Source of the DNA: Candidatus Kaiserbacteria bacterium
Lineage (GTDB): Bacteria; Patescibacteriota; Minisyncoccia; Phycocordibacterales; UBA2100
DNA length: 64,000 nucleotides
Direction of reading: 5' to 3'
Assembly: GCA_003164215.1 (NCBI GenBank)
Contig: PLSR01000017.1
Location: 28,656 to 92,655 of the forward strand
A program made the translations under genes and the position numbers. The notes under the pieces are model-generated. The model made no database searches. It worked only from the letters and a program-made list of their open reading frames with translations, and was not told where the DNA came from. Positions 66 through 59,772 of this stretch are shown here, piece by piece. The first letter of the stretch is position 1. The number at the start of each line of letters is the position of its first letter.

Positions 66-418
66 AGTAATCCTTTGGATTGTCAGGGACAATATTATTA
101 TTTGATCTTCGTGACGCGGACCTCGTCAGAGCTGATCCTTGCAAGGCATTTTGTATCCCGATACCCGCTAAAATGCCCTGTTGGTAACTCGCTTCGCAAC
201 CCCCTAATACTAAGCTAGGGTCTTGGACGGTACCCGAGTCGGGGGTATCATGTTCCTTACACATCCCATAACGGCCCGAAAGGGTAACGGCCTAAACCTT
301 CAGCAATGAGGGCATGGTCGCGGAATCGCGTTCAACATAGACAACCCGTCATTCAGGGCGTTGAACGCGTTATATGGGGAAACTCATATAGGGCCTTCGG
401 GCCTCCTGGTGGCGGGCT

Positions 419-1123
419 TTGTGTATTCAAAGTCCATTCTCCAAGGAGGCGATTATAAGCTTTGTAATCGCACACAATGATATGTCCAATGACAATCAGT
501 CCTCCGAGGTTAAGACAAAAAATATCACGTTCGGTTTTGTGATCGCATGGATCTTTGCAGTCATCGTCGGTATTCCCGGCATCATGATGCTGTTTGAATC
601 TGGCAATCAAGTTGCCGGTTTGCTCTTTATCCTCGCGGCACTCGTGGCGTTGCCGCCCTTCAATGCGTTCATTAAGAGCAAGAGCAATATTGGTCTCTCT
701 GGCGGCCTCCGCTTCGCCCTCATCGTCGTGCTTTGCATCGTCGCGGGTGTAGTTGCATCAAAAGGACCCGCATCCTCTTCGGATGTTTCCGTTCCGGCCG
801 CATCTGACGCCGCCGCAGGAACGCAACAGGCCGCACCGCAAGTCCTCCTCAATATCAAAGGTAACGGTACCAAGACGACACAGACCTTTATTACCGCCGG
901 AGCATGGGATCTCTCATATACGTACGACTGTTCCAACTTCGGTGCCCAGCAGGGCAACTTCATAGTGTACGTGTATAACAGCGACGGATCGATGTCACTC
1001 AGCAACACCGGCGTGAACCAACTCGGCAAGAGCGGATCTGACGTTAATCATTACCACACCGGCGGCTCCTTCTATCTCACCATCAACTCCGAGTGCGCGT
1101 GGACGGTGACCGTGACGGGGTAG
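419..1123 (+). CDS. hypothetical membrane protein with two N-terminal TM helices and a C-terminal beta-rich, probably extracellular domain
   Basis: ORF with hydrophobic segments (FGFVIAWIFAVIVGIPGIMMLF; LLFILAALVALPPF) followed by a Ser/Thr/Gly-rich region. True start may be the internal M at about 481. Confidence 0.5.
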   Translation: MCIQSPFSKEAIISFVIAHNDMSNDNQSSEVKTKNITFGFVIAWIFAVIVGIPGIMMLFESGNQVAGLLFILAALVALPPFNAFIKSKSNIGLSGGLRFALIVVLCIVAGVVASKGPASSSDVSVPAASDAAAGTQQAAPQVLLNIKGNGTKTTQTFITAGAWDLSYTYDCSNFGAQQGNFIVYVYNSDGSMSLSNTGVNQLGKSGSDVNHYHTGGSFYLTINSECAWTVTVTG

Positions 1124-1133
1124 GCCCCGTACT

Positions 1134-1868
1134 ATGATCAACGAGGCGATCAACTCGAAGATACTCGCGACTTGGAACAAGCACTTTGGCGCGAATGACG
1201 AAGTGCTTGCCCCGATCTTCTACGATGACTTCAAACAAGGAGGCTTGCTATTCGTCGGCATGAACCCATCGTTCAATCCGAAAGGGATGCGTGCGATCTT
1301 GCGCGGAACGGAGTTCGAGAAGCTTGATTTTGAATCTTTTTCCAAATGGAGCACTGCTATGTCGGATCCCACTCACGTCGATACCTCCATACGCATGGGG
1401 CGGCTCGTCAAAGAAAAATACTCTCCCCTCAAGCGCATGCATGAGATCGCGAAGGAGTGCAACACGCATTTCCAGCACATCGACCTCTTCGTATATCGGC
1501 AGACGAATCAAAACGAATTTCTGCCGCTCATTCGTGATACAAAGCGGGTGCTCAACGAATTTGGACGCGACCAGCTTGAGATATTTCTTGAGGCGCTCAA
1601 GGAGATACGACCTGAAGCCATCGTCGTTTCCAATGCCGGTTCCTGCGGAATCATACGGGAGCATTTCAAAGACAAGTTATTCTTCGACGAGCATCGCGGA
1701 TTCCACTGGCTCACATTGGACACCGAGCGCGTACCGGTTTTCTTTTCCTCCATGCTGAGCGGCCAGCGGGCGCTCGATACCGGATCATACGAGCGCCTCA
1801 AGTGGCACGTAGTACAAGCCGCAGGCAAACGACCGCCCGCGCGATTGAGCGTGAAGATTGAAATCTAA
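1134..1868 (+). CDS. divergent uracil-DNA-glycosylase-superfamily-like protein (Mug/TDG-like motifs)
   Basis: N-terminal LLFVGMNPSFNP resembles Mug motif GINPG. C-terminal PVFFSSMLSG resembles Mug LPNPSGLS. Size about 244 aa. Sits beside the phage terminase genes. Confidence 0.4.
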   Translation: MINEAINSKILATWNKHFGANDEVLAPIFYDDFKQGGLLFVGMNPSFNPKGMRAILRGTEFEKLDFESFSKWSTAMSDPTHVDTSIRMGRLVKEKYSPLKRMHEIAKECNTHFQHIDLFVYRQTNQNEFLPLIRDTKRVLNEFGRDQLEIFLEALKEIRPEAIVVSNAGSCGIIREHFKDKLFFDEHRGFHWLTLDTERVPVFFSSMLSGQRALDTGSYERLKWHVVQAAGKRPPARLSVKIEI

Positions 1869-1885
1869 CGCTTTCCCAAGAGGAA

Positions 1886-3382
1886 TTAATAGAGCGGAAT
1901 ATACCTCGGCACGACGGGCGGCTTTTGCACAACACTCAGTACGAGATTCACGAACGCATCGGACAGATCGTCGTGTTTCTCGACGCCGAAGTGAATCATT
2001 TGATTGAGGAGTGCCTCGACCCTGCTTCTTGGAAAAAGGATTCTACCTTCCTTGATCATATTCGCGGTGAGATAGAGCCTCGTGCGCTTGTCTTTAGAGC
2101 CGGGATGAACAGTCTGTACGTTCTTGAACCCCTCAGCCTTCAGTTGTTGGGGGAGGGCCGCTTGATACCCGCCGATCTCGACGATGAACGTCGGCTTCTT
2201 TGACCCCTCGGTATATTTGCGTTCGAGCGCCTTGCAGAGGTCAATTGTCTCAGGGAAGGTGATTCTACGGTTTACGATGTCGGGCAAGATGTACACTTTC
2301 GTATCCTTGCCGTCGCCGAAAAGCAGTCCGGGCACCATAGCGGTGTAGTCGGCCGTGTCTTGTTGCGATATCGCAGGATCGATGCCGATGCGAACGCTGG
2401 CATGCTTGGTATATCCGAACTCATCGCGCTCACTGCGATCGGGCAACTCATCGTAGTACTTGATCCATTCGCGGCGAATGACCTGTTCGTCGCGCGGCAC
2501 GTTCTCCAGGAGATACTCCTGCCGCCATGCCAAGTCGCTCACGACGCTTTGCCGTAGCTCCTCTATTTTCTCCGGCGTGTCGAATTTCTCCGGCCACAGC
2601 GGCTTGCCGTCTTTGATGAGCGGAAACCAACGATACAGTCCCTTCAATTCACCTTTGTCCATTTTGTCCTTCAACCGCATGACAAGCGAATCCTCGTGGA
2701 GAAAGTTGCCAACCATCATGATACGCGTACCGATGTCGCCGAGCGGCGCAATCTCGCGGGTGAACCAGTCGAAGAGCTTGTTGCGACCCTCGATCGTCTT
2801 GACCGAGTTCACGTCCTCAATATCGTCCAAGATCAAGAGGTCGGGACGGTGCTCGTGGTGCCTAATGCCGCGTATCGACTGGTCGATGGACGCGATAGTG
2901 AGTCTCGCGCCGGTGTTTTGGAAGACGAGCGATGAGATCGCCCATTGATCGTTGCTCGTTTCCTCGCGGAAGGGTCCGAGGTCGCTTCGCAAGAGCGTGT
3001 TTTGCTCCAGCTCATACTTGATGTTGGCCATTTGCTGCCTCGCTTGTGACTGGGTCTGGCAGATGATGAGTACAAACTTGCGCTGTTGCGCTCCCAAGAT
3101 TGCCCATAATGAGTAGGAGAATGTTATCAGCGTCGACTTGCCCGAGCCGCGAAACGCGACGATGCACGAAAGCTTGTTCGACATATCCTCGGTGATGCGG
3201 AATATCTCTTTTTGAAACTCCGCTACCGGATACTTGATGTAGTGCGGAAAGTAGGTGTGGAAGAACAGCACGTGGCTCTCGCGCACGACGAACTGCCGCA
3301 CCGTGCGGTCTTTGGCGAGCGCCTCCTGCAGTTCTTTTTCACTCAGATTCATGATGTTCGGTGAATGCCTTCGCCAACGCAA
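1886..3382 (-). CDS. terL: phage terminase large subunit
   Basis: Walker A AFRGSGKST and Walker B LLILDDIED in the ATPase domain. C-terminal RNaseH-like nuclease region (GIDPAIS...DYTAMV). Probable true start MNLSEKELQ at 3352, overlapping the upstream small-terminase-like gene. Confidence 0.88.
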   Translation of the reverse strand: MRWRRHSPNIMNLSEKELQEALAKDRTVRQFVVRESHVLFFHTYFPHYIKYPVAEFQKEIFRITEDMSNKLSCIVAFRGSGKSTLITFSYSLWAILGAQQRKFVLIICQTQSQARQQMANIKYELEQNTLLRSDLGPFREETSNDQWAISSLVFQNTGARLTIASIDQSIRGIRHHEHRPDLLILDDIEDVNSVKTIEGRNKLFDWFTREIAPLGDIGTRIMMVGNFLHEDSLVMRLKDKMDKGELKGLYRWFPLIKDGKPLWPEKFDTPEKIEELRQSVVSDLAWRQEYLLENVPRDEQVIRREWIKYYDELPDRSERDEFGYTKHASVRIGIDPAISQQDTADYTAMVPGLLFGDGKDTKVYILPDIVNRRITFPETIDLCKALERKYTEGSKKPTFIVEIGGYQAALPQQLKAEGFKNVQTVHPGSKDKRTRLYLTANMIKEGRILFPRSRVEALLNQMIHFGVEKHDDLSDAFVNLVLSVVQKPPVVPRYIPLY

Positions 3383-3734
3383 TGAGCGTAGCGGATTTCT
3401 CGACCTGCTCGGGCGTCATCTCCCGCACAGTCTCGAGTGTACCCTCGATCTCCAGTCGGTTGCGATATTCCGCGCGGTAGGTTTTCAGCCACAGTCTGAT
3501 GGAGCGGTAGTCGCTCATCTTTATCATGTTCATGAGCTGTCCCTCGGCGATGTCCGAGATGAAATCGCGCCCGTCGTACACGGCGGCGTCGACCGCCGCC
3601 GCGAATTTCGGATCCTTTTTCTTCCATTCGTAGAACGCGGTCCTGCCGATGCCCGTCTTAGCACAGGCGACCTCGACGACCGGCGTTTTCTTCAGCTCCT
3701 CGATCACTTTCTTTTTTATCACCGCGCTCTTCAT
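3339..3734 (-). CDS. small-terminase-like / phage HTH DNA-binding protein
   Basis: 131 aa, immediately upstream of and overlapping terL. HTH-like segment AKTGIGRTAFYEWKKK. The position is typical of terS. Confidence 0.5.
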   Translation of the reverse strand: MKSAVIKKKVIEELKKTPVVEVACAKTGIGRTAFYEWKKKDPKFAAAVDAAVYDGRDFISDIAEGQLMNMIKMSDYRSIRLWLKTYRAEYRNRLEIEGTLETVREMTPEQVEKSATLIALAKAFTEHHESE

Positions 3735-5080
3735 ATCTTTTCGGCCTTGAGCCCCGTGAGTTTCTCCAGGCGTTTGAGGATTACGGCGGTGTAAACGTTG
3801 CTCTTCTCCATGAGATAGCAGCGGCGCTTCATCTTGAGCGCGGCAGCTGCCGTAGAACCGCTACCACCGTAGGGCTCAAAAATCACATCGCCGCGCTTGC
3901 TAAGGACTTTGAGGTACGGGATGAGTATTTCCACCGGCTTGGTGCCGAAGATAATGCCTTGGCCCGACGACTTCTCATCAGCCGCGATGTGCTCGATGAA
4001 ATCAGTCGGGCAGTACTTCTTGCCCTTCGCGTACGGCTCCCAGTGCGGCTTACCCGAACTGGCGAAGAGCGCCGTTTCGTACTCTTCTTGAAGCAGTGGC
4101 TCCTCCGGCTCGAGGTTAAGGCCAACGTGGCCCGAGGTACCCACGAGCGCGATGTCGTGCTTGTTAAAAAACTTGTACTTCGCGCTAAAGCCCTGGACTC
4201 TGTTAGGTAGGTGCCAGACTATCGTGTTGCGATATCTCCAGTGCACCTCGAGCGCATTCCATATGGTGCGAAGGTTTTTGGGATGCTCGAAGATGATTAT
4301 CGAGAAGTCCGGCTTTTGAACCTTTGTCACATTGGCCATCCAGAGGTCGCTAAAGTTCTCCGGCAGTGTCTCGGTGCCCAGGTAGACGCGGTTTTTCTTC
4401 GCGCCGAACCCGCGCGTGACGCCGTCTTTCTGCTTCGTTTTGCCTTTGAGATAGTCCAAAATATAGGGAGGGTCGGTTAGGCACATGTCGGCTTTCTCGC
4501 CGTCCATGAGCGCGAGTACATCCGCTTCGACGGTGCTATCGCCGTTCATCACGATGGCGTCGCCCACACGAAAGCGATCACCGTGCTTGATATCGACGTT
4601 CGTAATTTCGAGCTTCGCAAGCTCCTTCGCGAGATCAAACACCTCCGGCTGCTCGTCGATTCCGAAGATGTCATCGAGTTCTTCGGAGCTAAACCCGATG
4701 CCCGCGAGAATGGACTCGTCGAACTCGGCGAGCGCCTTGAGATCGAACTCCGCCACGTTTTTATTCAACCGAATGATGAGCTCGGCCTCGCGCGTGGGAT
4801 CGGAGATGGTGATATACACGACCGGCACGGTTTCGTAGTGAAGTTCCTTCAGCACTTCGGCTCTCAGATTTCCTCCCAAAATTATTTTCTCGCGTCCTGG
4901 CGCGTTATTCACTATGAGGGGGTCGACGATGCCGTATCCCTTTATCGACTCCTTGACCTGCGCGATGACCTCCTTCGACCAGACGCGAGGATTTTTCTCG
5001 GGGTGCCGCAGTGACGCGAGTGGCACGTAATCGATCTTTAATGTGGCTGATACTGGCGCACTATGGATTGTTTTGTCCAT
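3731..5080 (-). CDS. ParB-like N-terminal domain fused to an N6-adenine/N4-cytosine DNA methyltransferase (phage-type)
   Basis: ParB-N region (GIVDPLIVNN...ILGGNLRAEVLKEL). Methyltransferase motif IV DPPY (CLTDPPYILDY) and motif I FEPYGGSGSTA. The listed GTG start at 5122 lies inside a terminator hairpin, so ATG at 5080 (MDKTIH) is preferred. Confidence 0.8.
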   Translation of the reverse strand: MDKTIHSAPVSATLKIDYVPLASLRHPEKNPRVWSKEVIAQVKESIKGYGIVDPLIVNNAPGREKIILGGNLRAEVLKELHYETVPVVYITISDPTREAELIIRLNKNVAEFDLKALAEFDESILAGIGFSSEELDDIFGIDEQPEVFDLAKELAKLEITNVDIKHGDRFRVGDAIVMNGDSTVEADVLALMDGEKADMCLTDPPYILDYLKGKTKQKDGVTRGFGAKKNRVYLGTETLPENFSDLWMANVTKVQKPDFSIIIFEHPKNLRTIWNALEVHWRYRNTIVWHLPNRVQGFSAKYKFFNKHDIALVGTSGHVGLNLEPEEPLLQEEYETALFASSGKPHWEPYAKGKKYCPTDFIEHIAADEKSSGQGIIFGTKPVEILIPYLKVLSKRGDVIFEPYGGSGSTAAAALKMKRRCYLMEKSNVYTAVILKRLEKLTGLKAEKI

Positions 5081-5101
5081 GGTATTAATGGTTACGCAAC
5101 G

Positions 5102-5154
5102 AAAAAACGCCCAGACACGCACCCGACCGTAAGGTCAGATATGTGTCTGGGCGT
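5102..5154 (-). terminator. rho-independent terminator on the minus strand, downstream of the zinc-ribbon gene
   Basis: Perfect 12-bp stem ACGCCCAGACAC/GTGTCTGGGCGT (5107..5118 and 5143..5154). A run of six A on the plus strand (5102..5107) gives a U-tract on the minus strand. Confidence 0.6.
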
Positions 5155-5214
5155 TCCAGACGATGCTCTTCTAATTGTGGCTCACAGAACTACCTGCGCC
5201 TATTATAGCATGCC

Positions 5215-5493
5215 CTAGGAAAGCGCACTATTGTCGGCCACTCCAATGGTCTCCGCGACGTGCGCGACGATATGCTCCGTCCCGCAGTCGGGGCAGGTTA
5301 TGGTCACGGTTGAGGGGTTGCCGCCCGGTTTGACGGTCTGGTAGCGCGGGCGTCCTTGTTTGGGGTGCACCATGAACTCAATGGCGTTCGTCGCCAAGTC
5401 CTTCTTATATATGGTCGTCCCGCAGTCGCATCGACCGGTACGGACGACTCTGCTATCCCCTTGGGGGATGAGCTTTATGACATCATTATCCAT
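5215..5493 (-). CDS. small zinc-ribbon protein
   Basis: 92 aa with CDCG...CPDCG Cys pairs, followed by the terminator. Confidence 0.5.
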   Translation of the reverse strand: MDNDVIKLIPQGDSRVVRTGRCDCGTTIYKKDLATNAIEFMVHPKQGRPRYQTVKPGGNPSTVTITCPDCGTEHIVAHVAETIGVADNSALS

Positions 5494-43060: not shown

Positions 43061-46000
43061 ATGCGTATCATGAACCGCAGACGTGGCGTTGCTTTCGGCT
43101 GTTGGGCATTAAGCACACTCATTTTCGTTGTCGGCTGTTTTCCAATTTTGGTTGAAGCACAATCCACGGATGTTGGCAGCTTATTGCCATCATGGCTGAT
43201 GGGGACTCCTCCCGCATCCACCGATACTGCCGATCTGCAATGTAGTAGTGATGGAGTCTACACCTGTGACTATCCAAAAATTGAGAATAATCAGCAGTGC
43301 CTTCGCGGCAAAACCTGCGCCGAGGTAAAAGACGGGTGTGTCATTTCCGGCGTGTGCGATAGGCCGAATCACTGCAACGACACGAGTGCCTGTGGCAAGG
43401 CGCCGGAGAAACCTACGGTACCGGTAATGCCGTCGCCTTCGAACTCCGGTATAACGGATACGCCGCAACAAAGTTCGGTCGGTTATCCCCAAAATCAGTC
43501 TTCAGACGTAACGCCGACGCCCGCACAGTCTGCAAGTGTCCCGACGTATGGATCATTAGATACGACGCAGTCCCAGACACAATCGCAACAATCATCGTTC
43601 AATCTATCTACCGACGGAAGTAACTATTCCGCGCCGACGGGGCAGGGTGTAAGTCCACTCACTGATGGCACACTCCAGGACGTATCGACAGTGCCGATAC
43701 CAGTCGATAGCAGAGTACCGCCCCTTTCAGGAGCGCAAGACACTGGAGGATCATCAGAAGGATCGAACGGTGTGTCAACTTTCCCGGTTGAAAATGGCCC
43801 GACGCCACAGCAGGCGGCACCTGCCTCGAGTTGCGGCTTCATCTGCTCCGCTGAGAATACCGTTTCATCGGCTTACAGTGCTGCTGCGAGTTGGATCTCG
43901 AACGAGATCTCTCCACCAGCGCCGACTGTTCCAAGCGATGCTTCGCTCAATAGCGCTCAGGCCCAGATCGATACTCCTCAATACTACGATCCGAACGCTG
44001 CAACCACCCCTGACGGCACACCTGCGATCACCGATGCGACCAAACAGGAGATGGTTCCGCTCATGCAAAACCAAGCAGACAGCATGACGAATGAGATGGT
44101 GCAGAACAATGCGCAGATACTAGCGCTGCAGGATCCGAACAATGGTATGGATCCGAATAGCGCGCAGAATGCAATCCAGGATCTCAATCAGCGGAACGCT
44201 TATTTGCAGGACCAACTCGATAAGGTGAATTCCGGCATCACCGCGCTCAATACGGGCGGACAGCTTTCGCCTGACGTACAACAGCTTGCGCAGACAGTGC
44301 AGGACGGCCAAGGTGCGCGCTCGGCGGTGCTTGACGCCGCTTCCGGCGGTCTTGCACAGGCGAGTGCATCCAATTTCGAAGCCGCAAAGCTCGCGATAAC
44401 TGATCCGAGTCTTTCGAATATTGCGTCCGCCGGAATGCACGCTTTCGAAAGCGGAGCTGACTACCTCGGTTCAGGAGTTGCGAGCCTTGTGAACACAACG
44501 TGTCAGGGAGTCGGCGTTTGCGGCCAATCGCCTGCTGAAGCAGTGGCCGCCTGGGCTGACCCGACTGCATCAAAAGTGAACACGATCGTGGCGGGAACAC
44601 AGCTGGCGGTCATGGCCGCACCATTTGCTGGCGAAGCAGTCGATGCGATCAGAGCTGCCGGAGCTGTCGACACCGGAGTAACCGCCTTTGTTTCGGACTC
44701 CGCAGTTGCGCGCACAATTGCTGATAGTGCAGGAGGTTGGACCGCATCTCTCGAAGCGCCAACGTTCGAAGCGGCCCAGACTACGGGGGGAGTGTACTCT
44801 ATTTCAGATTCTGCAGGTACCTTTGCGAATACAATTACTGACATACCGTCGGCGGCCGAACCACTTCCTGTGGGGGCATCTGCGGCACCGGCAGACGTCG
44901 CCCCAGCAGCAGCTCCCGTCGAAGAATTGTCAGCTGCCCAATTTTCAGATCAGATTGATCCGGCAATTACAGCTGAACTTGAACAAGCTAACGGTGCGGG
45001 TTCAGCACAGACGACGCAACCGGCACCGGAAGCCGCCCCGTCCGATGCGGCGGCTCCTACAGAAGCGGCGACACAAACCGCCCCTCCCATATCACCAACG
45101 TTTTCAGATGCGATGGATTACGTCTCGGCTCAAGCGCAGGCGCTCAAAGAAACCGTCACGGGCGGGATCAGCTCGATCGAGTCCGATATTAGCGACTACG
45201 TCAATTCACAGTTCGGAAATACAGAACCATCTGCGCTTACAGAGACGCCACTGCTCGCTCCCGTTTCAGAGGGGACCTCAAACGCGATGCAAAACGTCAT
45301 TGATCAAGCGGGGCAGCTCAAACTTTCTGCGACTATTCCTGCAGACGTGCCGGCAGGATCTGTGGCGCCCGAAGGAGCCGCACCTGCAGCTACGGAAGCA
45401 CCAGCACCAGCTGCACCCGAAGTATCGGCTCCTGCCGCCGACACTGAATCGTCGGCTGTACCCGCTGCTCCTGCCGCACAATCTACTCAAACCGTTTCAG
45501 ATGCGATCGCGACCGCCTACAATAATGTTCAGAACGACATAATCAACTTCAGCCAAGATATTGGCCAAAAATTGCAAGCATTCCAGTCCACGCTTTCCGA
45601 CGCATTCGGTTCGTCACCGGTTGAAACTGCACCTGGGGCGACAGTGCCATCAGCAGTAGAACCCGCTCCGGCCGCAGGTACCTCACCATCGACACCGGCT
45701 TTGGGTGACCTTTCAGGCGTCAGTGCGGGATCGAACATATCGCTGGAGACTGCGAACGATAATTATTTGATGAGTAGGGTAGTGGCGGGAGGGGTGGTCG
45801 GAGGCGCAGTCACGTTCGCGGCCATTGATTGGAGTTCCGTTTCTGTGCCTGCAACGTCGCCGGTACAGCCGGGTGATGTCGTCACCGAGATAGATCTTCA
45901 ACCACAAACTGAACCAACGCCCGCACCTACTCCTGCGGCAACCCCAGCCCCTGCTCCGACTCCTTCTCCAACTGTTATCGCAGTAGAGTCTGGGCCTGCT

Positions 46001-48991
46001 GCACCGGTGACACCAGTCGTAGCATCTGCGCTCCCAGCTCCATTGCCAACGCCTACTCCCGTCCCGACACCTTCGACCCTTGCCAATCCCGAAATGGTCG
46101 CATTCCTGAATAGTGATAGTCAGTACACTCCTCCGATCGAACCCATTACATCTGGCGAGAAGAATGTCATGACGGCATACCAAGCACCAATTGAGAACCC
46201 TGCATCTCCAGGTGCCGCACCATCGACGTCATACCCAAGTCCCCAAATGGTCTCATTCCTGACGAGCGAGAGTCAGTACACCCCTCCGATCGAACCCATT
46301 ACAGCAGGCGAGAAGAATGGCATGACGGCGTATCAGAATCCCATTGAGAGTGCTCCTGCCGCACCAAGTGGAGCGTCATCGGACCAAACTCAGGCCAAGA
46401 TCAACGCACCCGAGTACTATGGACCGCCGTATGTCCAACCTTCCGCGCCACCTACGCCCACACCAACCGCTATTGCATCGGCGGTTCCTCCGGAAGCGGA
46501 CATGTCGAACGGTTCCGCTCCAACTCCAACCTCCGCGTCGGCGGCATCTTCTCCAGCCCCAACACCCACACCGAGTGCTGCCGCTCCCGCAAGTACTCCT
46601 CCTGCGTCGACAGAAGGATCTACTCCAGCACCGACTCCTACACCTACTCAGACATCCGCCCCAACAGCTGCGCGGGCACCGGCGCCCACGGCGGGCACAA
46701 CGCCGACGCCAATACCGACGGCAACACCCGCATCTACACCTTCACCTGCGGCGACACCTGCTCCTGCAAAAACTCCTGTACCCAATCCGACACCCGCTCC
46801 AAAACCGGCTCCGACAAAATTTGCCCAGGCAATCCCGAACGAATCCGGGAAACCGTTTCAGACCGCCAGTGGTCAGGCGCTCGCCGACGCCACTGGTGTA
46901 GCCTGTGCGGCGATCGGCTGCGATGCGGCGCTCGTGCAAAAAGCACTCGCCGGTGTTTGTTCGACCGAGTCCGGCTGCAACGCACAAGTGCTGCATGTCG
47001 GTAACGGGTATCAGGGATTGTTCCAGGCCGATTCTGTCTCCACAGGGGCCGCGATGACCGCATTGAAGCAGATAGCACAATCACCGAAGCTCTCGACCGC
47101 TCAAAAGGCCCAGATCACGTCGGTCATCAATACGGCACAAGCCCAAATAAATGCGAAACAGGATCCAAATAAAGACTCTGTGCTTGGGGCGTGGATCGGC
47201 GTCGGCTATCAAACGGCCGCTGGTTCATTATCGAAGATCGGTACGGTCACCAACGACCCGGGACTTGCCGCGGCATACGGTATGCTCGCGCAGATCGCGC
47301 CCGATACGTTCTACAATTTCAGCCCTAATAAGCGGATAAGCACGATCAGCGTACTGCATTTACAAGGTAATAATTACTGGATCCCGTTCGGCGCTACGGC
47401 GGCGGATGCGGCACGAGTAATACTCGCAACGGTCGGACAAAAGATCACTACCGGCATAAACTGGAGCGGACAATTTTCTCCGAGCGTGTCATCGGCACCG
47501 AACCCGGCCGCTGCGCCTCCCGCTCCCGCCGCGACACCGCCCGTCACCCGATCTCTTTCAACTCCTCCCCCCGCGCCGACCAAAGTTGCTTCTGGCCCTG
47601 CTCCGGCCGCTTCTGCGCCCCCGAGTTCCGGTCCGTACACAAAAGATAACGTTACGATTGTCGGCGACAGCATCGGGCAGGGGACGTCAGGCTGTTCATC
47701 GGCGGTCGGCACGGCATGTGCCGGGACCACCTTCAAGGGAAATGCGGTGAGCGGTGCGGCGATGGGAGCAATGCTGAAGCAGATCAATGCGTTACCGAAT
47801 GGATCGAAGATCGCGGTCATTGCGGGAACGAATAATTACGGCGAAACGCCCGCTCAGATAGGGCAGGACGTTAAAGCACTGATCGATGCCGCTAACGCAA
47901 AAAATATTCAGATCGTCGCGTGGGCGGGGGCATCGTTAGATCCGAAAAATCCGACACTTGATGTGCAGTTCGCGGCTGCCGATACTGAGGTCAAGAACGC
48001 GCTGCCATCGAATATCCCCTTCGTCGATCTACGTTCGTCAAGTCTTGATCCCTATCGAGATGGCTATCATTACACTGCCGCAGGATATAAAGCGATCGGC
48101 GACATGATCATCGCTCAAGCGAATACCCCTGCATCTGACTCAGGTGTTGCGGTCGCATCGAGTGTTCGGCCAGCCGCTCCCGCTCCCACTCCGGCGGTGT
48201 CCGCTCCCGATGCGTCGTCCGCCCTTCAAGTACCACCACCGGCCGCAACACCGTCAAGCGCCATCGCGGAGGCCTCTTCGGCGTCGACTGCCGACTTTGC
48301 CGCAACAGAACGAGATGTTGCGAGCGCCAAGATACAACTTGGACAAACAAAACAGACGATAACCGCCGACAAATCCCAGCTCGCATCGCTCCAGACGCAG
48401 GAGGCTGCTACCGTGAAGAAAATAGCTGCGTATCAAAACACTGCGCAAGCAACAACCGATCTCTCGTCTGCAAAAGCGGGACTCGATGTATTGAACACTT
48501 TGGGAAGAAGCAAAACGGAGCCGACTGCTGCCGAACTGCCAATAATGACGAGGGCGGCGGCCGCGACCGTTCAGCTCGCGAAAGAGATCGGGGATCCCGC
48601 GCTTTCCGGTCAAATCAATGAGTATGTTACCGCTCTCGCGAACTTAAAAGCGGAACCGTCCTCCTTTACCAAGCTCACTGATCTTTGGGCTGCAGAATCG
48701 AAGGGGGCGGCGCTTGTCACGGCAATATCAACGGCCTTGGACAACACGAGTAAAAATCTTGCAGCGAGCGGGAGCCTCGCGAGTTTACAGACCACATCGG
48801 CGAAACTCGCGACGAACATCGCCAACCTCAATACGACGATCGCTTCGCTGCAGCAAACGGAAGTACAGCAGGTCGCAGAGGTCACGAATATGACCAATCT
48901 GTTGCATCAAAAAGAAGAACTTGCCGCCAGCGCTCCAACGTTGCCACACATATGGAAACCGCCGACAACTCCGTCTGCCACGACCCCGTAA
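43061..48991 (+). CDS. giant (1976-aa) secreted multidomain protein: Cys-rich N-terminal module, long Pro/Ala/Thr/Ser-rich region, lysozyme-like (SLT/VirB1-type) transglycosylase domain, SGNH/GDSL hydrolase domain, C-terminal coiled coil
   Basis: Signal peptide. Ten Cys at about aa 60-110. Internal ~40-aa duplication (PEMVAFLNSDSQYTPPIEPIT(S/A)GEKN...). CSTESGCNAQVLHVGNGYQGLFQ matches the ES...GLxQ transglycosylase core (nt ~46850-47450). SGNH blocks GDSIGQG, GAAMG, GTNN and DGYHY (nt ~47640-48110). Heptad-rich tail. All antisense ORFs inside are compositional artefacts. Confidence 0.85.
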   Translation: MRIMNRRRGVAFGCWALSTLIFVVGCFPILVEAQSTDVGSLLPSWLMGTPPASTDTADLQCSSDGVYTCDYPKIENNQQCLRGKTCAEVKDGCVISGVCDRPNHCNDTSACGKAPEKPTVPVMPSPSNSGITDTPQQSSVGYPQNQSSDVTPTPAQSASVPTYGSLDTTQSQTQSQQSSFNLSTDGSNYSAPTGQGVSPLTDGTLQDVSTVPIPVDSRVPPLSGAQDTGGSSEGSNGVSTFPVENGPTPQQAAPASSCGFICSAENTVSSAYSAAASWISNEISPPAPTVPSDASLNSAQAQIDTPQYYDPNAATTPDGTPAITDATKQEMVPLMQNQADSMTNEMVQNNAQILALQDPNNGMDPNSAQNAIQDLNQRNAYLQDQLDKVNSGITALNTGGQLSPDVQQLAQTVQDGQGARSAVLDAASGGLAQASASNFEAAKLAITDPSLSNIASAGMHAFESGADYLGSGVASLVNTTCQGVGVCGQSPAEAVAAWADPTASKVNTIVAGTQLAVMAAPFAGEAVDAIRAAGAVDTGVTAFVSDSAVARTIADSAGGWTASLEAPTFEAAQTTGGVYSISDSAGTFANTITDIPSAAEPLPVGASAAPADVAPAAAPVEELSAAQFSDQIDPAITAELEQANGAGSAQTTQPAPEAAPSDAAAPTEAATQTAPPISPTFSDAMDYVSAQAQALKETVTGGISSIESDISDYVNSQFGNTEPSALTETPLLAPVSEGTSNAMQNVIDQAGQLKLSATIPADVPAGSVAPEGAAPAATEAPAPAAPEVSAPAADTESSAVPAAPAAQSTQTVSDAIATAYNNVQNDIINFSQDIGQKLQAFQSTLSDAFGSSPVETAPGATVPSAVEPAPAAGTSPSTPALGDLSGVSAGSNISLETANDNYLMSRVVAGGVVGGAVTFAAIDWSSVSVPATSPVQPGDVVTEIDLQPQTEPTPAPTPAATPAPAPTPSPTVIAVESGPAAPVTPVVASALPAPLPTPTPVPTPSTLANPEMVAFLNSDSQYTPPIEPITSGEKNVMTAYQAPIENPASPGAAPSTSYPSPQMVSFLTSESQYTPPIEPITAGEKNGMTAYQNPIESAPAAPSGASSDQTQAKINAPEYYGPPYVQPSAPPTPTPTAIASAVPPEADMSNGSAPTPTSASAASSPAPTPTPSAAAPASTPPASTEGSTPAPTPTPTQTSAPTAARAPAPTAGTTPTPIPTATPASTPSPAATPAPAKTPVPNPTPAPKPAPTKFAQAIPNESGKPFQTASGQALADATGVACAAIGCDAALVQKALAGVCSTESGCNAQVLHVGNGYQGLFQADSVSTGAAMTALKQIAQSPKLSTAQKAQITSVINTAQAQINAKQDPNKDSVLGAWIGVGYQTAAGSLSKIGTVTNDPGLAAAYGMLAQIAPDTFYNFSPNKRISTISVLHLQGNNYWIPFGATAADAARVILATVGQKITTGINWSGQFSPSVSSAPNPAAAPPAPAATPPVTRSLSTPPPAPTKVASGPAPAASAPPSSGPYTKDNVTIVGDSIGQGTSGCSSAVGTACAGTTFKGNAVSGAAMGAMLKQINALPNGSKIAVIAGTNNYGETPAQIGQDVKALIDAANAKNIQIVAWAGASLDPKNPTLDVQFAAADTEVKNALPSNIPFVDLRSSSLDPYRDGYHYTAAGYKAIGDMIIAQANTPASDSGVAVASSVRPAAPAPTPAVSAPDASSALQVPPPAATPSSAIAEASSASTADFAATERDVASAKIQLGQTKQTITADKSQLASLQTQEAATVKKIAAYQNTAQATTDLSSAKAGLDVLNTLGRSKTEPTAAELPIMTRAAAATVQLAKEIGDPALSGQINEYVTALANLKAEPSSFTKLTDLWAAESKGAALVTAISTALDNTSKNLAASGSLASLQTTSAKLATNIANLNTTIASLQQTEVQQVAEVTNMTNLLHQKEELAASAPTLPHIWKPPTTPSATTP

Positions 48992-53334: not shown

Positions 53335-54330
53335 ATGTTCGTAATGTACCGAGCACATTTCATACGTGGAGGTCAAACGATGTTCTTTGAGAATATACTC
53401 AAAACATCAGGGTTCTCGATGGAGACACTCGCACAGTTATGTAACGTAAGCGTGCGTACCATACGGGACTGGAAGCGAGAAAAGTATCGAGCGGAATATG
53501 ATGCAGTTATTTTTTTAAGTAAAAAATTTCATACTAAAACAGGTACGATCAAAAAAGTTGATATACGTGAGCATCTTCTCTCGGTAGCTTCCTCGGGTGG
53601 GATGGCTCGCTATGAACGATATGGCCCCGTGAGTAGCCAGGAAGATAGAAAAAGAGGCGGCAGAATATCTCAGTCACTGCGTCGTTCTAGCCCGCAGAAG
53701 TATCGTCTACTCGGTTGTAACGTTCGAAAAGATTTCAAAAACCCGAAGTATTCGGAGAAATTTGCCGAAGTTATCGGAATCTTATTGGGTGACGGGGCAC
53801 TCAATGATTATCAGGTGCGCGTCACACTTAGTAAAACGGTGGACAGAGAGTATGCGCACTTTGTCCGCGTACTTATGCGAGATGTATTTGGTGAGAATCC
53901 GTCATGGCGGGAGCGTCATAATGTTATCGAGATCACGCTATCAGGTGCCGCGCTCGTTGAAGTGCTAGAGAATCGGGGATTGAGACGCGGCAACAAAGTG
54001 CGTCATCAAGTGGATATACCAAAGTGGATCTTTACAAATAAGAAGTACCAGCGGGCGTGTCTACGAGGGTTGTTTGATACTGACGGCGGCATCTATCGAC
54101 ATAAGAAAGAAAAACGCACCTACGTCGGGTGGTCTTTCTCGAACCATTCCCGCCCTATCATTAAGGGAGTGATGGATATATTATACGCACACGGCATTGC
54201 AAATTCTCTGCAAAATGAGACAAAAGTGTACATATACTCGTTTGCCGATATAATGAGGTATATGGAGGTTGTGGGTTCACATAATCCGAAAAACATGCAG
54301 AGAATAGTCGGTGCTAGATCAAAGTTTTGA
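53335..54330 (+). CDS. free-standing double-motif LAGLIDADG homing-endonuclease-like protein with an N-terminal HTH
   Basis: Two LAGLIDADG motifs, IGILLGDGAL and LRGLFDTDGGI, about 100 aa apart. N-terminal HTH-like METLAQLCNVSVRTIRDWK. Ends 8 nt before tRNA-Ser. Confidence 0.65.
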   Translation: MFVMYRAHFIRGGQTMFFENILKTSGFSMETLAQLCNVSVRTIRDWKREKYRAEYDAVIFLSKKFHTKTGTIKKVDIREHLLSVASSGGMARYERYGPVSSQEDRKRGGRISQSLRRSSPQKYRLLGCNVRKDFKNPKYSEKFAEVIGILLGDGALNDYQVRVTLSKTVDREYAHFVRVLMRDVFGENPSWRERHNVIEITLSGAALVEVLENRGLRRGNKVRHQVDIPKWIFTNKKYQRACLRGLFDTDGGIYRHKKEKRTYVGWSFSNHSRPIIKGVMDILYAHGIANSLQNETKVYIYSFADIMRYMEVVGSHNPKNMQRIVGARSKF

Positions 54331-54337
54331 ATGCAGA

Positions 54338-54422
54338 GGAGAGATGCCTGAGTGGTCTAAAGGACACGCTTGGAAAGCGTGCGTGGGGCAACCCACCGAG
54401 GGTTCGAATCCCTCTCTCTCCG
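54338..54422 (+). tRNA. tRNA-Ser (anticodon GGA), class II with a long variable arm; CCA is not encoded
   Basis: GGAGAGA acceptor stem pairs with TCTCTCC. Anticodon stem-loop cACGC-TTGGAAA-GCGTg. T-arm GAGGG-TTCGAAT-CCCTC. Discriminator G. Confidence 0.88.
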
Positions 54423-54498
54423 CCCGTAGTAGTTTTTATCGGTGCTATGCTGAGCCCCTCGGCTGTTGTGTACACCATGAAGTAGTCATAGAATCCAG

Positions 54499-55536
54499 TT
54501 GATGGCATCTAGAAAGAAATCCAAGAGGAAATATCTAATATATCTCGATAAGGGTATTCAGGCGCTTCTCTCTGCCATAGACAGGATCAATAGTGTCCAC
54601 GACCCCTACCGGGTCGAGCAATCCTTGATCCTAGCCACTAATGCGTGGGAGCTGTTGGCCAAAAGTATTCTTTTAAGGGACAAGGTGAATATCCAGTATG
54701 CTGATGGTCGCACAATATCTGCCGAAGATGCTCTGACAAAATTGGTCTCCAGCGGATACCTTACCGAGAATCAATCGCAACATATTCAACAGATCATTTC
54801 TTTGCGAAATGCTGCTGTCCACTCGGTGTTGCCACATACGCCCGATGAAATTCTCTTTCATCTTCAATTTTATTCGGTGAAATTCTTTAAAGATCTGGTC
54901 TCCAAAGAATTCCCACCCTACGCGAAAAAGTGTAATGGTAATTTTATTTCGATAAGTTTCGACACGTTTACCACATATGCCGATAAGGTACAAAAGTTAG
55001 TAGCACGAGCAAGAAAACGAGGAACTCCCGAACAAGAACTCATGTGGTTGCTAGAGCGAGGTATTAGATTCAAGGGAGGACAATACATGTCGCAGACAAA
55101 ATTTGAAGACGAACTAAAAAAACTTGGACCAAGACGACGTCTCTATCATCATCTGAAGGTTTCTGATTTTATCAAAGATGCTCACATGGTAGTGGTTGTG
55201 CCAGTCCAAGCTCCGAAGGGCTACACCGCAGATATAAACCTTAGAAAAGGTCAAAATAAGGCTGGATCAGCACTGCCCGTTATGATTAAGAAAACGGATA
55301 TCGAAGAAGACTATCCTTATCTAACATCAGAACTCGGAAGACAAATTGGGAAGGGTACGAACTTTGTGGCTCATTCATTGCAAAAAATGAACGCGAAAGG
55401 AAATCCAACCTATCATCAGGCGGTCAGGTCCTCCAAGTCTGGAATGATTAATAGGTATTCACAAAAGGCATTGGATCTACTGAAGGATGCACTGAGCAAG
55501 GATCCAACTTATACACCCTTTCGGAAGAAGATTTGA
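54499..55536 (+). CDS. HEPN-like N-terminal domain protein with an uncharacterised C-terminal domain; candidate defence effector
   Basis: The N-terminal ~130 aa are helical with an Rx4H motif (LRNAAVHS) at the end of the last helix, as in HEPN. Located between tRNA-Ser and the serine recombinase. Confidence 0.5.
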   Translation: MMASRKKSKRKYLIYLDKGIQALLSAIDRINSVHDPYRVEQSLILATNAWELLAKSILLRDKVNIQYADGRTISAEDALTKLVSSGYLTENQSQHIQQIISLRNAAVHSVLPHTPDEILFHLQFYSVKFFKDLVSKEFPPYAKKCNGNFISISFDTFTTYADKVQKLVARARKRGTPEQELMWLLERGIRFKGGQYMSQTKFEDELKKLGPRRRLYHHLKVSDFIKDAHMVVVVPVQAPKGYTADINLRKGQNKAGSALPVMIKKTDIEEDYPYLTSELGRQIGKGTNFVAHSLQKMNAKGNPTYHQAVRSSKSGMINRYSQKALDLLKDALSKDPTYTPFRKKI

Positions 55537-55623
55537 GAGCGGATCGTCGGTGGTGACTCCATTGGTGACATATCGCACCGGTAGGTGGTGGCGAACCTTT
55601 TTACCAAGGAGTACCATCGAAGC

Positions 55624-56658
55624 ATGCCTCCCTGCATATACTGCAAAACAGAAAACTTTGAAAAATTCAAAGGGGTCGAGCACGTCATCCCACAAGCTTT
55701 TGGTAAGTTCGGAGCCAAGACACCGACGCTTAAATGCGTATGCGACGACTGCAACACCTTCTTTATGAAGGAACTTGATCAAGTTCTGGCACGAGAGACC
55801 CTAGAAGGGGTCACCCGCTATAAGAAAGGAATCTACTCGCGCGAGGCACGTCCGCAAACAAAATTGAAGTTCTCCCTTGCAGAATCTCCGGAAATCGGAG
55901 ACTTTCACGGTGCCATGATAGCTGTTGACGGTACAACTGGGAAATTGATGTCGCCTCCGGCTCAATACAAGATTTTGAACAAGTTGACCGGCAAATACGA
56001 AATCTATCTGGAACACCAGCTCAAGGATTTAAAAGTCACCGATGAAGTGTACGGCAAGCCAGGCGAGCGCGAGATCGGTATCATCGCGCCCTCCAGTGAG
56101 GCGCTCGATACGTTCATAAAAAAACTGAACGAGACTGGAATACCCTACAAGGAAAAGGAACGTTATCAGCCGCCATTCGTGAAGGCAATGGAGAGAATGC
56201 CTGACGATGGCGTTTCAACTCTAGAGGTTACAGTCGACGGCAAGATCGACGATCCGGTAAAGCGCGCGGTTGTAAAAATCCTTTTTAACTTCGCTACCTA
56301 CAACCTCGGTCCCGCTGAAACGTTGAAAAATGAATGGGATGCGGCGCGGAGTTTTATTCGGTTTACCGGAAAGACACTTATGGGGCGCGTCTCACAGAAG
56401 CCGTTTTGGGACGGGCAAGAGACCGAAACGATGCGCTTCTTGGACGACAGTTACAACTTGCGTATTGAGAATCAAAATGGGAATGTCGTCGGTGTTCTCC
56501 AGTTCTACAACCTGTTCACATATGAGTTTATCTTGGTCGAGGGGTATCAGATTCCACCGGAGCATGAAATAGCATATCGCTTCACTCCTGGAAAAGAGCC
56601 GATCATTGGGCGGAAAATGACTAAGTTGGAATATCTAAAGATGCAGCTGCCGGAATAA
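55624..56658 (+). CDS. HNH-endonuclease-domain protein with a ~270-aa uncharacterised C-terminal domain
   Basis: CIYCKTEN...EHVIPQAFG...CVCDDCN gives an HNH core (CxxC ... H ... CxxC). ATG at 55624 is preceded by AAGGAG. Confidence 0.6.
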   Translation: MPPCIYCKTENFEKFKGVEHVIPQAFGKFGAKTPTLKCVCDDCNTFFMKELDQVLARETLEGVTRYKKGIYSREARPQTKLKFSLAESPEIGDFHGAMIAVDGTTGKLMSPPAQYKILNKLTGKYEIYLEHQLKDLKVTDEVYGKPGEREIGIIAPSSEALDTFIKKLNETGIPYKEKERYQPPFVKAMERMPDDGVSTLEVTVDGKIDDPVKRAVVKILFNFATYNLGPAETLKNEWDAARSFIRFTGKTLMGRVSQKPFWDGQETETMRFLDDSYNLRIENQNGNVVGVLQFYNLFTYEFILVEGYQIPPEHEIAYRFTPGKEPIIGRKMTKLEYLKMQLPE

Positions 56659-57990
56659 TTACTCGATCGTCACAGCGCCATTGTTGACTTTGAAGTTCGA
56701 CTTAAAGCACCCCATCAGCTCGCGCTTCTCCTCGTTGGTGCCCTCCTTGAGGATGTACTTTGCATACGTCCTGATATTGATCTCCTCATGCTTTGCATCG
56801 GGATCTGAGAGACCAAGTACGGTGCGCTGGAATTTATTGTGCCGTTTCAATTCGTCCTCGAATTTCATCTGCACGTTGATCTGGTTGATATCGATCTGAT
56901 CGATAATCTTGAGCAGTTGCTCTACGAGTTCCTCCTCACGCAGATACGTATTGCCTTTGCACTGTTTGTCACGCGTACGTCCGCATCCGTAGTAGACGTA
57001 ACGAGCGGTCGTGCCATCCTTGCGCTGCTTGTACTTTTCCTCAGCGCTGATGCACGATCCGCACTTGCCGCACGTCATGAGTTTCGTGAAGGCAAACTCG
57101 TGCGATTCCCGCTGTATGTTGTCTCGCTTGAGCTGTGCCTGCACCTTTTCGAATAATTCCTTGGGCACCAATGGTTCGTGCTTGCCCTGATACCAGTTGC
57201 CGCTATTTCGCGGATACTCAAATATGCCGTGGTAGAAGGGATTGGAGAGAATGCGGTACATATTGCCGAGCGAGAGCGGTTTCTTACCTTGTGTCTGAAA
57301 GATTAGTTCGAATCGGAGCCAGTGATACAATCGCGGCCCTGACCATTTTTCATACCCGACTTTCTCGAACATCTTCCGTATCACCGGCCCGCGATCCGGA
57401 TCGATGATGACCTCGCACTTCCGGTCCATTCGCCGTTCGTTGAGATATCCGGTCAACGTGCTTCCGGGCCGCAGTCCCATCTCGCAGCGCGTTCTAAGTC
57501 CTCGCTTTACGTTTACGCCGCGATTGTCGTTCTCGAGTTTTGCCTGACTCCCCAGAATCATCAGGAGGAACTTCTCGTTCGGGTTATTACGGAACGACTG
57601 GCTATACGTACGGATCTCCATGAGTACTCCCGCGTCCATGAGATCGATGACTTTCCCGAGGTCGCCAGCGTTGCGTGAGATGCGATCCGGTGCCCATGTC
57701 AGTATCGCGTTGAACTTTCCCGTTTTCATTTCATCGACGATCTCGTTGAAGACGGGACGCTGCCCTGCTTCTTTGGCTGAGTGGCTCTCGCGCTTCATCG
57801 CGACGATCTCGAGCCCTTCGCGCTCCGCGAGTTGGAGCATCTCCTTGATCTGGGAATCGATGGAGAGCACCTGCCGCTCCTCGCTCTCGGTGCTCTTGCG
57901 AGCGTAGAGGCAAAACTTGAGCGGCACGATCTTCAATTCCGGTCTCCCGATCTGCCCTCCGGGGAATGGTCTCTCGATGACGTTGTCCAT
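56659..57990 (-). CDS. large serine recombinase (integrase)
   Basis: Catalytic domain YARKSTESEERQVLSIDSQ (Ser nucleophile), recombinase domain and a C-terminal zinc ribbon (CGKCGSCISAE...YYGCG). Confidence 0.85.
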   Translation of the reverse strand: MDNVIERPFPGGQIGRPELKIVPLKFCLYARKSTESEERQVLSIDSQIKEMLQLAEREGLEIVAMKRESHSAKEAGQRPVFNEIVDEMKTGKFNAILTWAPDRISRNAGDLGKVIDLMDAGVLMEIRTYSQSFRNNPNEKFLLMILGSQAKLENDNRGVNVKRGLRTRCEMGLRPGSTLTGYLNERRMDRKCEVIIDPDRGPVIRKMFEKVGYEKWSGPRLYHWLRFELIFQTQGKKPLSLGNMYRILSNPFYHGIFEYPRNSGNWYQGKHEPLVPKELFEKVQAQLKRDNIQRESHEFAFTKLMTCGKCGSCISAEEKYKQRKDGTTARYVYYGCGRTRDKQCKGNTYLREEELVEQLLKIIDQIDINQINVQMKFEDELKRHNKFQRTVLGLSDPDAKHEEINIRTYAKYILKEGTNEEKRELMGCFKSNFKVNNGAVTIE

Positions 57991-58073
57991 ATGCTTGTGG
58001 TATTTAGCTGCTACATCACAAGCAATGCCGCAACCCTCGCCACAAGTCTATTGAATACAAGGAGGTAACTATT

Positions 58074-59546: not shown

Positions 59547-59550
59547 AATG

Positions 59551-59760
59551 TTATCGTTTCTTGAGCGTCTGCTCGAGAAGCTCGATGCGTGCCTTGAGTT
59601 CAGCCGTCTCAATGCTTTTTACCAATGCGGTCGCCACGCGGGAAAGAGCAAGCGCTTGCCGCAGGGTAATCTTTCGATTCTTGAGGTCGTGCATGGCCTG
59701 TGAAAGCAGTATTGTCACTTCCGCGGGAGTCAGTGATTTTGTGAGTAATTCGTGTTCCAT
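59551..59760 (-). CDS. small coiled-coil protein
   Basis: 69 aa, tightly packed between neighbouring genes. Confidence 0.4.
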   Translation of the reverse strand: MEHELLTKSLTPAEVTILLSQAMHDLKNRKITLRQALALSRVATALVKSIETAELKARIELLEQTLKKR

Positions 59761-59772
59761 ATTGATGTGCGG

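Follow-up and report, generated by a model that had tools for sequence, protein, structure and literature searches.

What is a phage packaging motor doing in a stretch of bacterial chromosome that has none of the head genes it would serve? The question is raised by a 64,000-nucleotide stretch of DNA from a Candidatus Kaiserbacteria bacterium (assembly GCA_003164215.1, contig PLSR01000017.1, positions 28,656 to 92,655), here called the window. In its left module (1134..5493; all coordinates are those of the whole window) a ParB-N::DNA methyltransferase gene, a gene resembling that of the terminase small subunit (terS-like) and a gene for the terminase large subunit (terL) follow one another on the minus strand. 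At least 120 loci, drawn from Patescibacteria assemblies and IMG/VR contigs and spread across classes of the Candidate Phyla Radiation (CPR), show this trio with its order unchanged, and the trio's head-less state is a conserved, selected state of a CPR-wide family and not the outcome of decay. That the family represents a satellite-like, capsid-less packaging element, mobile and parasitising phages, rather than a dead prophage, is a reading to which we give about even chances.

The methyltransferase–terminase trio and its head-less family

Three genes carry the argument:
1886..3352, minus strand: terminase large subunit (ATPase and RNaseH-like nuclease), 488 amino acids (aa) from the ATG at 3352; identified from Pfam, PHROG, TIGR01630 and invariant residues
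3339..3734, minus strand: terS-like helix-turn-helix (HTH) protein, 131 aa; identified from phrog_4044 (3.7e-7) and its position next to terL
3731..5080, minus strand: ParB-N::beta-class N6/N4 DNA methyltransferase, 449 aa from the ATG at 5080; identified from Pfam and phrog_498

The terL product exceeded the Pfam cut-offs for Terminase_6N (25.7 bits against 22) and Terminase_6C (31.7 against 22.6) as well as that of TIGR01630 (48.5 bits against 41.65), and matched phrog_38 at 6.6e-78 across residues 21–489. When 25 homologues were aligned, Walker A (G69, K72, S73) and Walker B (D176, D177, E179) of the ATPase part and D325, D421 and H460-D461-D462 of the nuclease part were invariant, and the window protein keeps all residues invariant across the alignment. 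The terS-like family matched terS PHROGs in 66 of 66 members (best E 1.4e-13), and in 80 of 82 loci its gene immediately precedes terL; a search with its profile against PDB sequences gave nothing significant and no solved relative. Because element variants devoid of terL retain the terS-like gene, its product may have another DNA-binding role, for example as a recombination directionality factor or a regulator. The methyltransferase scored above the cut-offs for ParB_N (31.4 bits against 26.3) and N6_N4_Mtase (63.5 against 26.7), matched phrog_498 at 7.8e-64, and shows TDPPY and EPYGGSGST in its translation, the beta-class order with DPPY ahead of the FxGxG S-adenosylmethionine motif. Four open reading frames (ORFs) occupy the minus strand from 5493 to 1886: a 92-aa frame, the methyltransferase, terS-like and terL. 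As the last three overlap, by ATGA at 3731–3734 and by 14 nt at 3339–3352, an operon of the trio is plausible.

An earlier note on this DNA had described a bona fide terminase with Walker and nuclease motifs, an overlapping small-terminase-like gene, a ParB-N::methyltransferase fusion and a minus-strand operon in which head and portal genes fail to follow the terminase, and these descriptions held up, the operon as a plausible one. No homologue of a portal, protease or capsid gene turned up in the window, the flanks of the source contig or the related loci, so that the window terL has no portal or procapsid partner in the surveyed DNA of its own genome. This leaves its membership of the terminase fold intact and makes the locus unusual.

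The surroundings are cellular. The window encodes DUF5652, TypA, GlmS and RNase J proteins with CPR homologues, as expected of Patescibacteria chromosomal DNA, and the left module lies inside a source contig of 93,225 bp (ENA k141_434040) with cellular genes on either side; the right-end module discussed below touches the contig start. The idea that both ends are one element on a circular contig was thereby refuted. Neither the 8.5 kb downstream nor the 10 kb upstream of the left copy contains a recombinase gene, and no repressor gene was found at the locus.

To place the locus among its relatives, we scanned one genome per species, which gave 439 loci with a terL relative; the best 80 of the 439 were examined, tblastn counts are per 82 loci, and IMG/VR contigs with terL relatives were compared alongside. 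A methyltransferase gene lies upstream in 78 of the 82, either the ParB-methyltransferase alone or the same gene followed by a second, short methyltransferase, as in the window's right module. In loci that we term type 1, the orthologues of the window methyltransferase are 57–78% identical and stand upstream of terS/terL. A large serine recombinase, 45–65% identical to the one at the right end of the window, is present in 52 of the 82, often 100–250 nt after terL and on the same strand. Where a genome locus had at least 8 kb on both sides, the recombinase was found in 26 of 36 (~72%) and was missing from 10 (28%). When the ORFs of the 82 loci were clustered all against all, no further family proved to be widely conserved, and none had the size of a portal or capsid protein. 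Genes that recur as accessories encode a LexA-like S24 repressor, placed divergently (23 loci), a protein of 130 aa (18) and a membrane protein with an OB-fold (16).

The genes that follow the LexA-like repressors form a varied set: a DUF2188-like small protein, multi-pass membrane proteins, and TIR-like proteins whose N-terminus resembles KVFISF.YE.D, an assignment made by eye only. In L063, L064, L066 and L015 the order is LexA and then fam46, fam41 and fam75; in L072, L021, L009 and L030 the families are fam22, fam23 and fam31. These genes look like abortive-infection cargo.

The relationship to ordinary phages depends on the distance in terL. All IMG/VR contigs with a terL at least 41% identical have the terS-like and methyltransferase genes and usually the recombinase. 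At 35–40% identity (the L125–L164 type), the genes after terL are instead those for a portal protein (phrog_2662), a prohead protease (phrog_80) and the HK97 capsid protein (phrog_10); these head-bearing relatives lack the element's terS-like gene, its recombinase and the LOOT RNA described below, and many have a ParB-methyltransferase upstream of terL. Searches by tblastn with the portal, protease and capsid sequences as queries found none of them in any element locus or in the window, and no relative at least 41% identical has head genes. Two apparent portal matches, in L079 and L128, were rejected as portal genes, being 72–74-aa matches to the C-terminal domain.

More than 2,000 terL relatives were found at E <= 1e-10 among 8,000 candidates scored. 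More than 100 CPR proteins are 55–62% identical to the window protein; the best 120 relatives, at 53–62%, all belong to CPR lineages, and their contigs reach 860 kb. The nearest terL among the cultured phages in GenBank is ~25% identical, and a close cultured-phage relative was therefore rejected. A terL phylogeny, which the earlier note had proposed, separates the families: in a neighbour-joining tree the element genes form a clade apart from the head-bearing phages, and the window copy falls in a sub-clade mostly without the recombinase. Methyltransferase types are shuffled over this tree. A further scan, seeded on the terS-like family, found a non-orthologous terL (phrog_2, 8e-39) in the same slot in L201 and L204; such replacement fits a need to match different helper portals.

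Between related elements with 85–97% amino acid identity, at which synonymous sites are saturated, the dN/dS of terL (the ratio of nonsynonymous to synonymous change) was 0.02–0.06. The values are the same as in the terL of head-bearing phages and hold in lineages without a recombinase within 10 kb, and the terS-like and methyltransferase genes are under similar selection. As at least 120 loci share the head-less state, none of them has a portal or capsid gene, and terL evolves under this constraint, decay is not what produced it.

The convergent cargo and the leading hairpin

On either side of the trio lie features that link the window copy to its relatives:
289..404, plus strand: LOOT RNA (Rfam RF03000), which leads the convergent cargo operon, outside the left module as delimited above; 64.8 bits against a gathering score of 46.4, covering model positions 1–121 of 121
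482..1123, plus strand: cargo gene next to LOOT, for a small membrane protein whose OB-fold domain is 'tRNA_anti-like'; belongs to ORF cluster family 6, assigned to PF12869 through the family representative (3e-25)
1134..1868, plus strand: protein with a predicted uracil-DNA glycosylase (UDG)-superfamily fold, 244 aa, second cargo gene; from an AlphaFold model and Foldseek
5100..5157, minus strand: terminator-like 25-bp hairpin and U-tract, minimum free energy -56 kcal/mol (z -5.4), 20–75 nt upstream of the methyltransferase start codon
5215..5493, minus strand: 92-aa four-cysteine (Zn-ribbon-like) protein with CxC...CxxC, a transcription unit of its own upstream of the hairpin

LOOT is typed as 'sRNA' in Rfam. 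With a covariance model (R1) that we built from nine instances, LOOT was found in 41 of ~99 related element loci and in four IMG/VR loci; the head-bearing phage loci searched gave no match. The LOOT-bearing loci besides the window are L001, L002, L005, L008, L011, L014, L016, L022, L027-L032, L034, L036, L037, L041, L043, L048, L049, L055, L057, L062, L065-L071, L075, L076, L086, L087, L093, L097, L098, L104, L109, L123, L128 and L165. Usually, on the strand opposite to terL and 0.55–2.7 kb downstream of it, the RNA precedes by 40–90 nt a gene for a small membrane protein that converges on terL; in three different configurations it abuts the recombinase gene. The commonest gene after LOOT is that of the OB-fold membrane protein (13 of 36), whose family occurs in 16 related loci, the window included, mostly convergent with terL. 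For its start in the window we used the gene call of the source contig, 482, and not the mechanical ORF start at 419.

The second cargo gene converges on terL, with stop codons 17 nt apart. Its product has no match in Pfam, PHROG, NCBIfam or PADLOC. The AlphaFold 2 model (pLDDT 90.6) retrieved only UDG-superfamily structures from the PDB: family-4 UDG, UdgX and TDG make up the top 45 Foldseek hits, SMUG1 comes next, and the best is a family-4 UDG (E 3e-5, probability 1.00), with TM scores of 0.45–0.60 among the top hits and 6–16% sequence identity to solved UDGs. The protein is thus predicted to have the UDG alpha/beta fold, in line with the earlier call of a UDG-like gene abutting terL on the opposite strand. 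It has ~300 homologues in CPR genomes, in which N44 and P45 of a GMNPS motif are invariant; the motif resembles the GINPG/GMNPG motif of UDG families 2 and 3. These ~300 Patescibacteria 'hypothetical proteins', for which Pfam has no model, could be an unclassified UDG family.

Counting the gene as part of a phage module proved mistaken. It was not found in 163 related loci; a copy 71% identical stands behind LOOT in an element variant that consists of a ParB-methyltransferase, a terS-like gene, a 78-aa gene and a recombinase and has no terL, and another, 72% identical, sits among ordinary cellular genes. The OB-fold and UDG-like genes are cargo of the element and not phage genes, because LOOT leads both in the window.

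The hairpin stands between the four-cysteine gene and the methyltransferase and so splits the Zn-ribbon gene, which the earlier note had rightly recognised, from the operon. It was missed by a simple terminator scanner and found by folding. Its basal stem GGAACGCCCAGACA/TGTCTGGGCGTT (GGAACGCCCAGACA...TGTCTGGGCGTTTTT) is shared by six other loci (L002 8178, L004 8139, L045 1678, L062 8236, L070 8212, L122 2445) in which the proteins are only ~55–60% identical, and 12 of the 25 pairs show compensatory changes. No match was found in Rfam. Terminator-like hairpins (<= -20 kcal/mol) occur in the 350 nt before the methyltransferase in 21% of 104 loci and in none of the control regions taken from within terL. 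The hairpin may be a terminator, an antitermination site or a protein-binding site. A terminator heading a terminase operon is the layout of antitermination-controlled late operons in lambdoid phages. Homologues of the four-cysteine protein, whose sole Pfam match is below the cut-off, are placed likewise in L045, L062 and L070, three loci that have the conserved hairpin; as a speculation, the protein might act on the hairpin in a predicted antitermination.

The right-end module

The window contains a second member of the family, which served as a comparator:
56659..62188, minus strand: right-end module, recognised from methyltransferase and recombinase similarity
60899..62188, minus strand: ParB-methyltransferase
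60153..60902, minus strand: second methyltransferase
59773..60156, minus strand: 127-aa gene
59551..59760, minus strand: 69-aa gene
58074..59549, minus strand: 490-aa helical protein (from its ATG)
56659..57990, minus strand: large serine recombinase

The methyltransferase pair is 48–56% and the recombinase 45–65% identical to genes flanking terS/terL in the element family, and the view that both ends of the window carry related invaders is borne out. The earlier note went further and took the two modules for paralogues with one gene order, methyltransferase, terS-like and then a large protein. The comparison of methyltransferases that it proposed did detect similarity over the whole domain: the left enzyme aligned with both right-end enzymes at E 4e-22 and 2e-20. 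The identity was only 25–26%, the methyltransferase domain was all that the modules share, and no nucleotide similarity was found between them (best E 0.18). Because of this low identity and the lack of DNA similarity, the modules do not appear to be recent paralogues. The gene order agrees by position only, the right module having an extra methyltransferase and the 69-aa ORF. As a counterpart of terS the 127-aa protein was rejected, for its HTH...RLWL pattern is faintly similar but BLASTP gave E 0.13 and the terS-family profile an hhalign probability of 0.4%. Homology between the left terL and the large right-end protein was likewise rejected (BLASTP E 0.19): the model of the 490-aa protein is confident and almost all-helical, and has no terminase-like or other significant match in the PDB.

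Homologues of the 490-aa protein occur on small replicons (L210 and L211, which are whole contigs, and L212). Two contigs of 9,172 bp from different samples are circular permutations of each other with a 141-bp terminal overlap each, giving a circle of ~9.03 kb that encodes MerR, HTH_17, a DnaG-type primase, a DnaB-like helicase, a PC4-like protein, a small resolvase and a GIY-YIG protein. It may be an undescribed small plasmid or virus family. The right-end module is a chimeric member of the element family, with the family's methyltransferases and recombinase and with small-replicon genes in the terminase slot.

Just beyond the recombinase lies a tRNA-Ser gene (54338..54424), as in seven other loci. 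The stretch from the tRNA to the recombinase (54338..57990) is low in GC (45%) and holds two genes, a DUF3644 protein (54499..55536) that matches the PADLOC candidate defence family PDC-S19 at E 1.9e-22 and, beside it, an HNH_5 protein (55585..56658); the two are probably defence cargo of the right-end element. Right before the tRNA, the Pfam annotation of the source contig shows a free-standing LAGLIDADG_3 homing-endonuclease-type gene (53335..54330, plus strand). Upstream of the right-end ParB-methyltransferase, an ORF at 62382..63914 (minus strand) runs past the window end and reaches 600 aa in the source contig; its product has a cysteine-rich C-terminus with a weak zf-4CXXC_R1 match and no other family match. 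The largest ORF of the window encodes 1,976 aa at 43061..48991 (plus strand).

Satellite, cellular function or remnant, and known systems

How might a terminase without a head be maintained? We propose that the left module is one copy of a compact (~5–10 kb), Patescibacteria-specific family of mobile elements whose core operon, ParB-N::DNA methyltransferase(s), TerS-like and TerL, would have been captured once from the front of an HK97-type phage late operon, all head genes having since been lost. To this core, typical members would add a large serine recombinase gene that closely follows terL, in many cases an upstream LexA/CI-like repressor gene that points the other way, and a convergent 'cargo slot' led by LOOT, usually for a small membrane protein. 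A helper phage would build the procapsids. The element's TerS would mark element DNA, and its TerL would dock on the helper's portal and fill helper heads with that DNA and probably with flanking host DNA too. By methylation, the ParB-N::methyltransferase could protect the packaged DNA against restriction in the recipient cell, where the recombinase would integrate it. As the window copy has no recombinase of its own, it could be immobile, moved in trans (a matching recombinase is present in the right-end member) or retained, in the last case because its terminase interferes with phage packaging or transduces the neighbourhood. Mobility in the family at large is suggested by five contigs on which a pair of divergent cassettes, 11–20 kb apart, point the same way (L010/L073, L094/L097, L095/L105, L111/L115 and L022/L066), which suggests tandem or repeated integration. 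The shuffled methyltransferase types, the exchange or loss of terL, the divergent repressors and the tRNA-Ser beside the recombinase speak for mobility too.

Several observations weigh against this proposal. Selection was computed on relatives, as the window copy has no close but distinct ones, and the existence of terL-less variants shows that terL is dispensable to the element. Among 41 complete short contigs we found no excised, circular or terminally redundant form and no terminal direct or inverted repeats; around the left module, the hairpin apart, there were no att-like repeats. We recognised no replication gene in the element and identified no helper phage for the window's genome, the head-bearing relatives being only 35–40% identical in terL. 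That relatives appear in IMG/VR may be due only to terL being treated as a viral hallmark gene. Finally, the recombinase-less copies, the window copy and the 10 of 36 above, are conserved, and a role retained by the host, such as packaging interference, fits such selected copies equally well.

This last point is the heart of the most serious rival, by which the trio is a domesticated cassette serving the CPR cell and the link to the recombinase is ancestral baggage. The trio might be an anti-phage device that competes for or sabotages procapsids or DNA, the packaging half of a gene-transfer system, or a pair resembling restriction-modification in which the methyltransferase protects self DNA and the TerL ATPase-nuclease cuts foreign DNA. 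The recombinase-less loci, 28% of those with full flanks, are under equally strong purifying selection and include most of the window copy's sub-clade; the left copy lies among cellular genes without flanking repeats, and cassettes often stand beside type I restriction-modification, TIR-like and other defence-type genes. Yet TerL and TerS match no PADLOC model (only generic methyltransferase models match), the cassettes occur patchily and often in several copies, LexA-like repressors and recombinases are typical of mobile DNA, and the swapping or loss of terL fits the matching of helper portals better than a fixed cellular role. We consider domestication rather unlikely. In a single genome a terL without head genes has the look of a deletion remnant, and the missing recombinase and repressor of the window copy, like the partial terL matches in L187, L188 and L205, would suit a prophage that has lost its head, tail and lysis genes and has no present function; the identical architecture in at least 120 loci across CPR classes, the intact, overlapping ORFs with every invariant catalytic residue, the low dN/dS and the absence of head genes from every relative at least 41% identical make this very improbable. 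The earlier note had left the choice between remnants and satellites open; these results contradict the first and favour the second. The trio could also be one end of a complete prophage of 30–40 kb in which attP lies between terL and portal and the head genes at the far end, as the recombinase directly after terL in many loci would lead one to expect. As the 8–10 kb upstream flanks are cellular in the window (VKOR, VanY, DoxX, ABC transporter, Obg) and likewise in L001 and L002, we rejected this reading, which the lack of any conserved family of structural-protein size in the 82 loci and the negative tblastn searches leave with next to no probability. Even jointly, remnant and complete prophage account for only a small part of our expectation.

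The satellite-like packaging element thus stays our preferred reading, and its broadest form can be offered tentatively, as somewhat less than an even bet: a phylum-wide, undescribed set of capsid-less satellites that combine a terminase holoenzyme, a ParB-N::methyltransferase, a serine recombinase and LOOT leading surface-protein cargo, with recombinase-less copies kept to hijack or block the packaging of CPR phages. If true, organisms with few known defences would have a combined defence and gene-transfer system. Very little is known of the phages and mobile elements of CPR bacteria, and the cassette is possibly present in several hundred species-level genomes. A TerL without a capsid, together with a serine recombinase, would be a new satellite architecture; the orphan LOOT family would gain a genomic home and a testable role; terL matches in CPR metagenome-assembled genomes and IMG/VR would be no proof of prophages or viruses; and the elements would give a handle on helper phages and routes of DNA exchange in uncultured epibionts. 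In the literature, whose full text was incompletely covered, we found no description of the element, of any Patescibacteria satellite or of the genomic context of LOOT.

Among known systems, one to compare is the front of the HK97-type late operon in the L125–L164 contigs, which has a terL of the same superfamily (35–40% identical), often a ParB-methyltransferase upstream, and matches to phrog_498, phrog_38 and terS PHROGs. Its order is (ParB-)methyltransferase, terS, terL, portal, protease and capsid; the element clade lacks everything after terL, and differs in its own terS-like family, its recombinase, LOOT and its separate place in the tree. Gene transfer agents do not replicate as autonomous phages, and purifying selection preserves their terminase in the chromosome of the cell; they are inherited vertically as single copies and retain genes for heads and tails, some of which may be encoded elsewhere. 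The element family resembles them in its selected chromosomal terminase and differs in being patchy and multi-copy and in having no linked head or tail genes.

Also comparable are the phage-inducible chromosomal islands (PICIs) and their capsid-forming relatives (cfPICIs), integrative elements of small size that encode an integrase or recombinase, a repressor, packaging genes of their own, cargo or defence genes and few or no virion proteins; PICIs carry terS and cfPICIs terS and terL (compare the SatelliteFinder paper, PMC10085698). Compared with such satellites, the window copy has packaging genes without virion genes and lacks a recombinase and a repressor of its own. The family as a whole differs in that cfPICIs with terL also carry capsid, portal and connector genes, whereas it has TerS and TerL with none of these; it uses a large serine recombinase where PICIs have a tyrosine integrase; a ParB-N::methyltransferase heads its operon and no pri-rep/ori module was recognised in it; and its host phylum is Patescibacteria. 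The PICI-like elements (PLEs) of Vibrio cholerae are satellites that integrate by a large serine recombinase, have no capsid genes of their own and interfere with their helper, but they are without terminase genes and have no sequence relationship to the family, and their helper dependence is established by experiment where that of the element would be read from sequence (PMC6002521, PMC9638900). What is new relative to these known satellites is that a full terminase without a capsid occurs together with a large serine recombinase, a ParB-N::methyltransferase and a leader in the form of a structured RNA.

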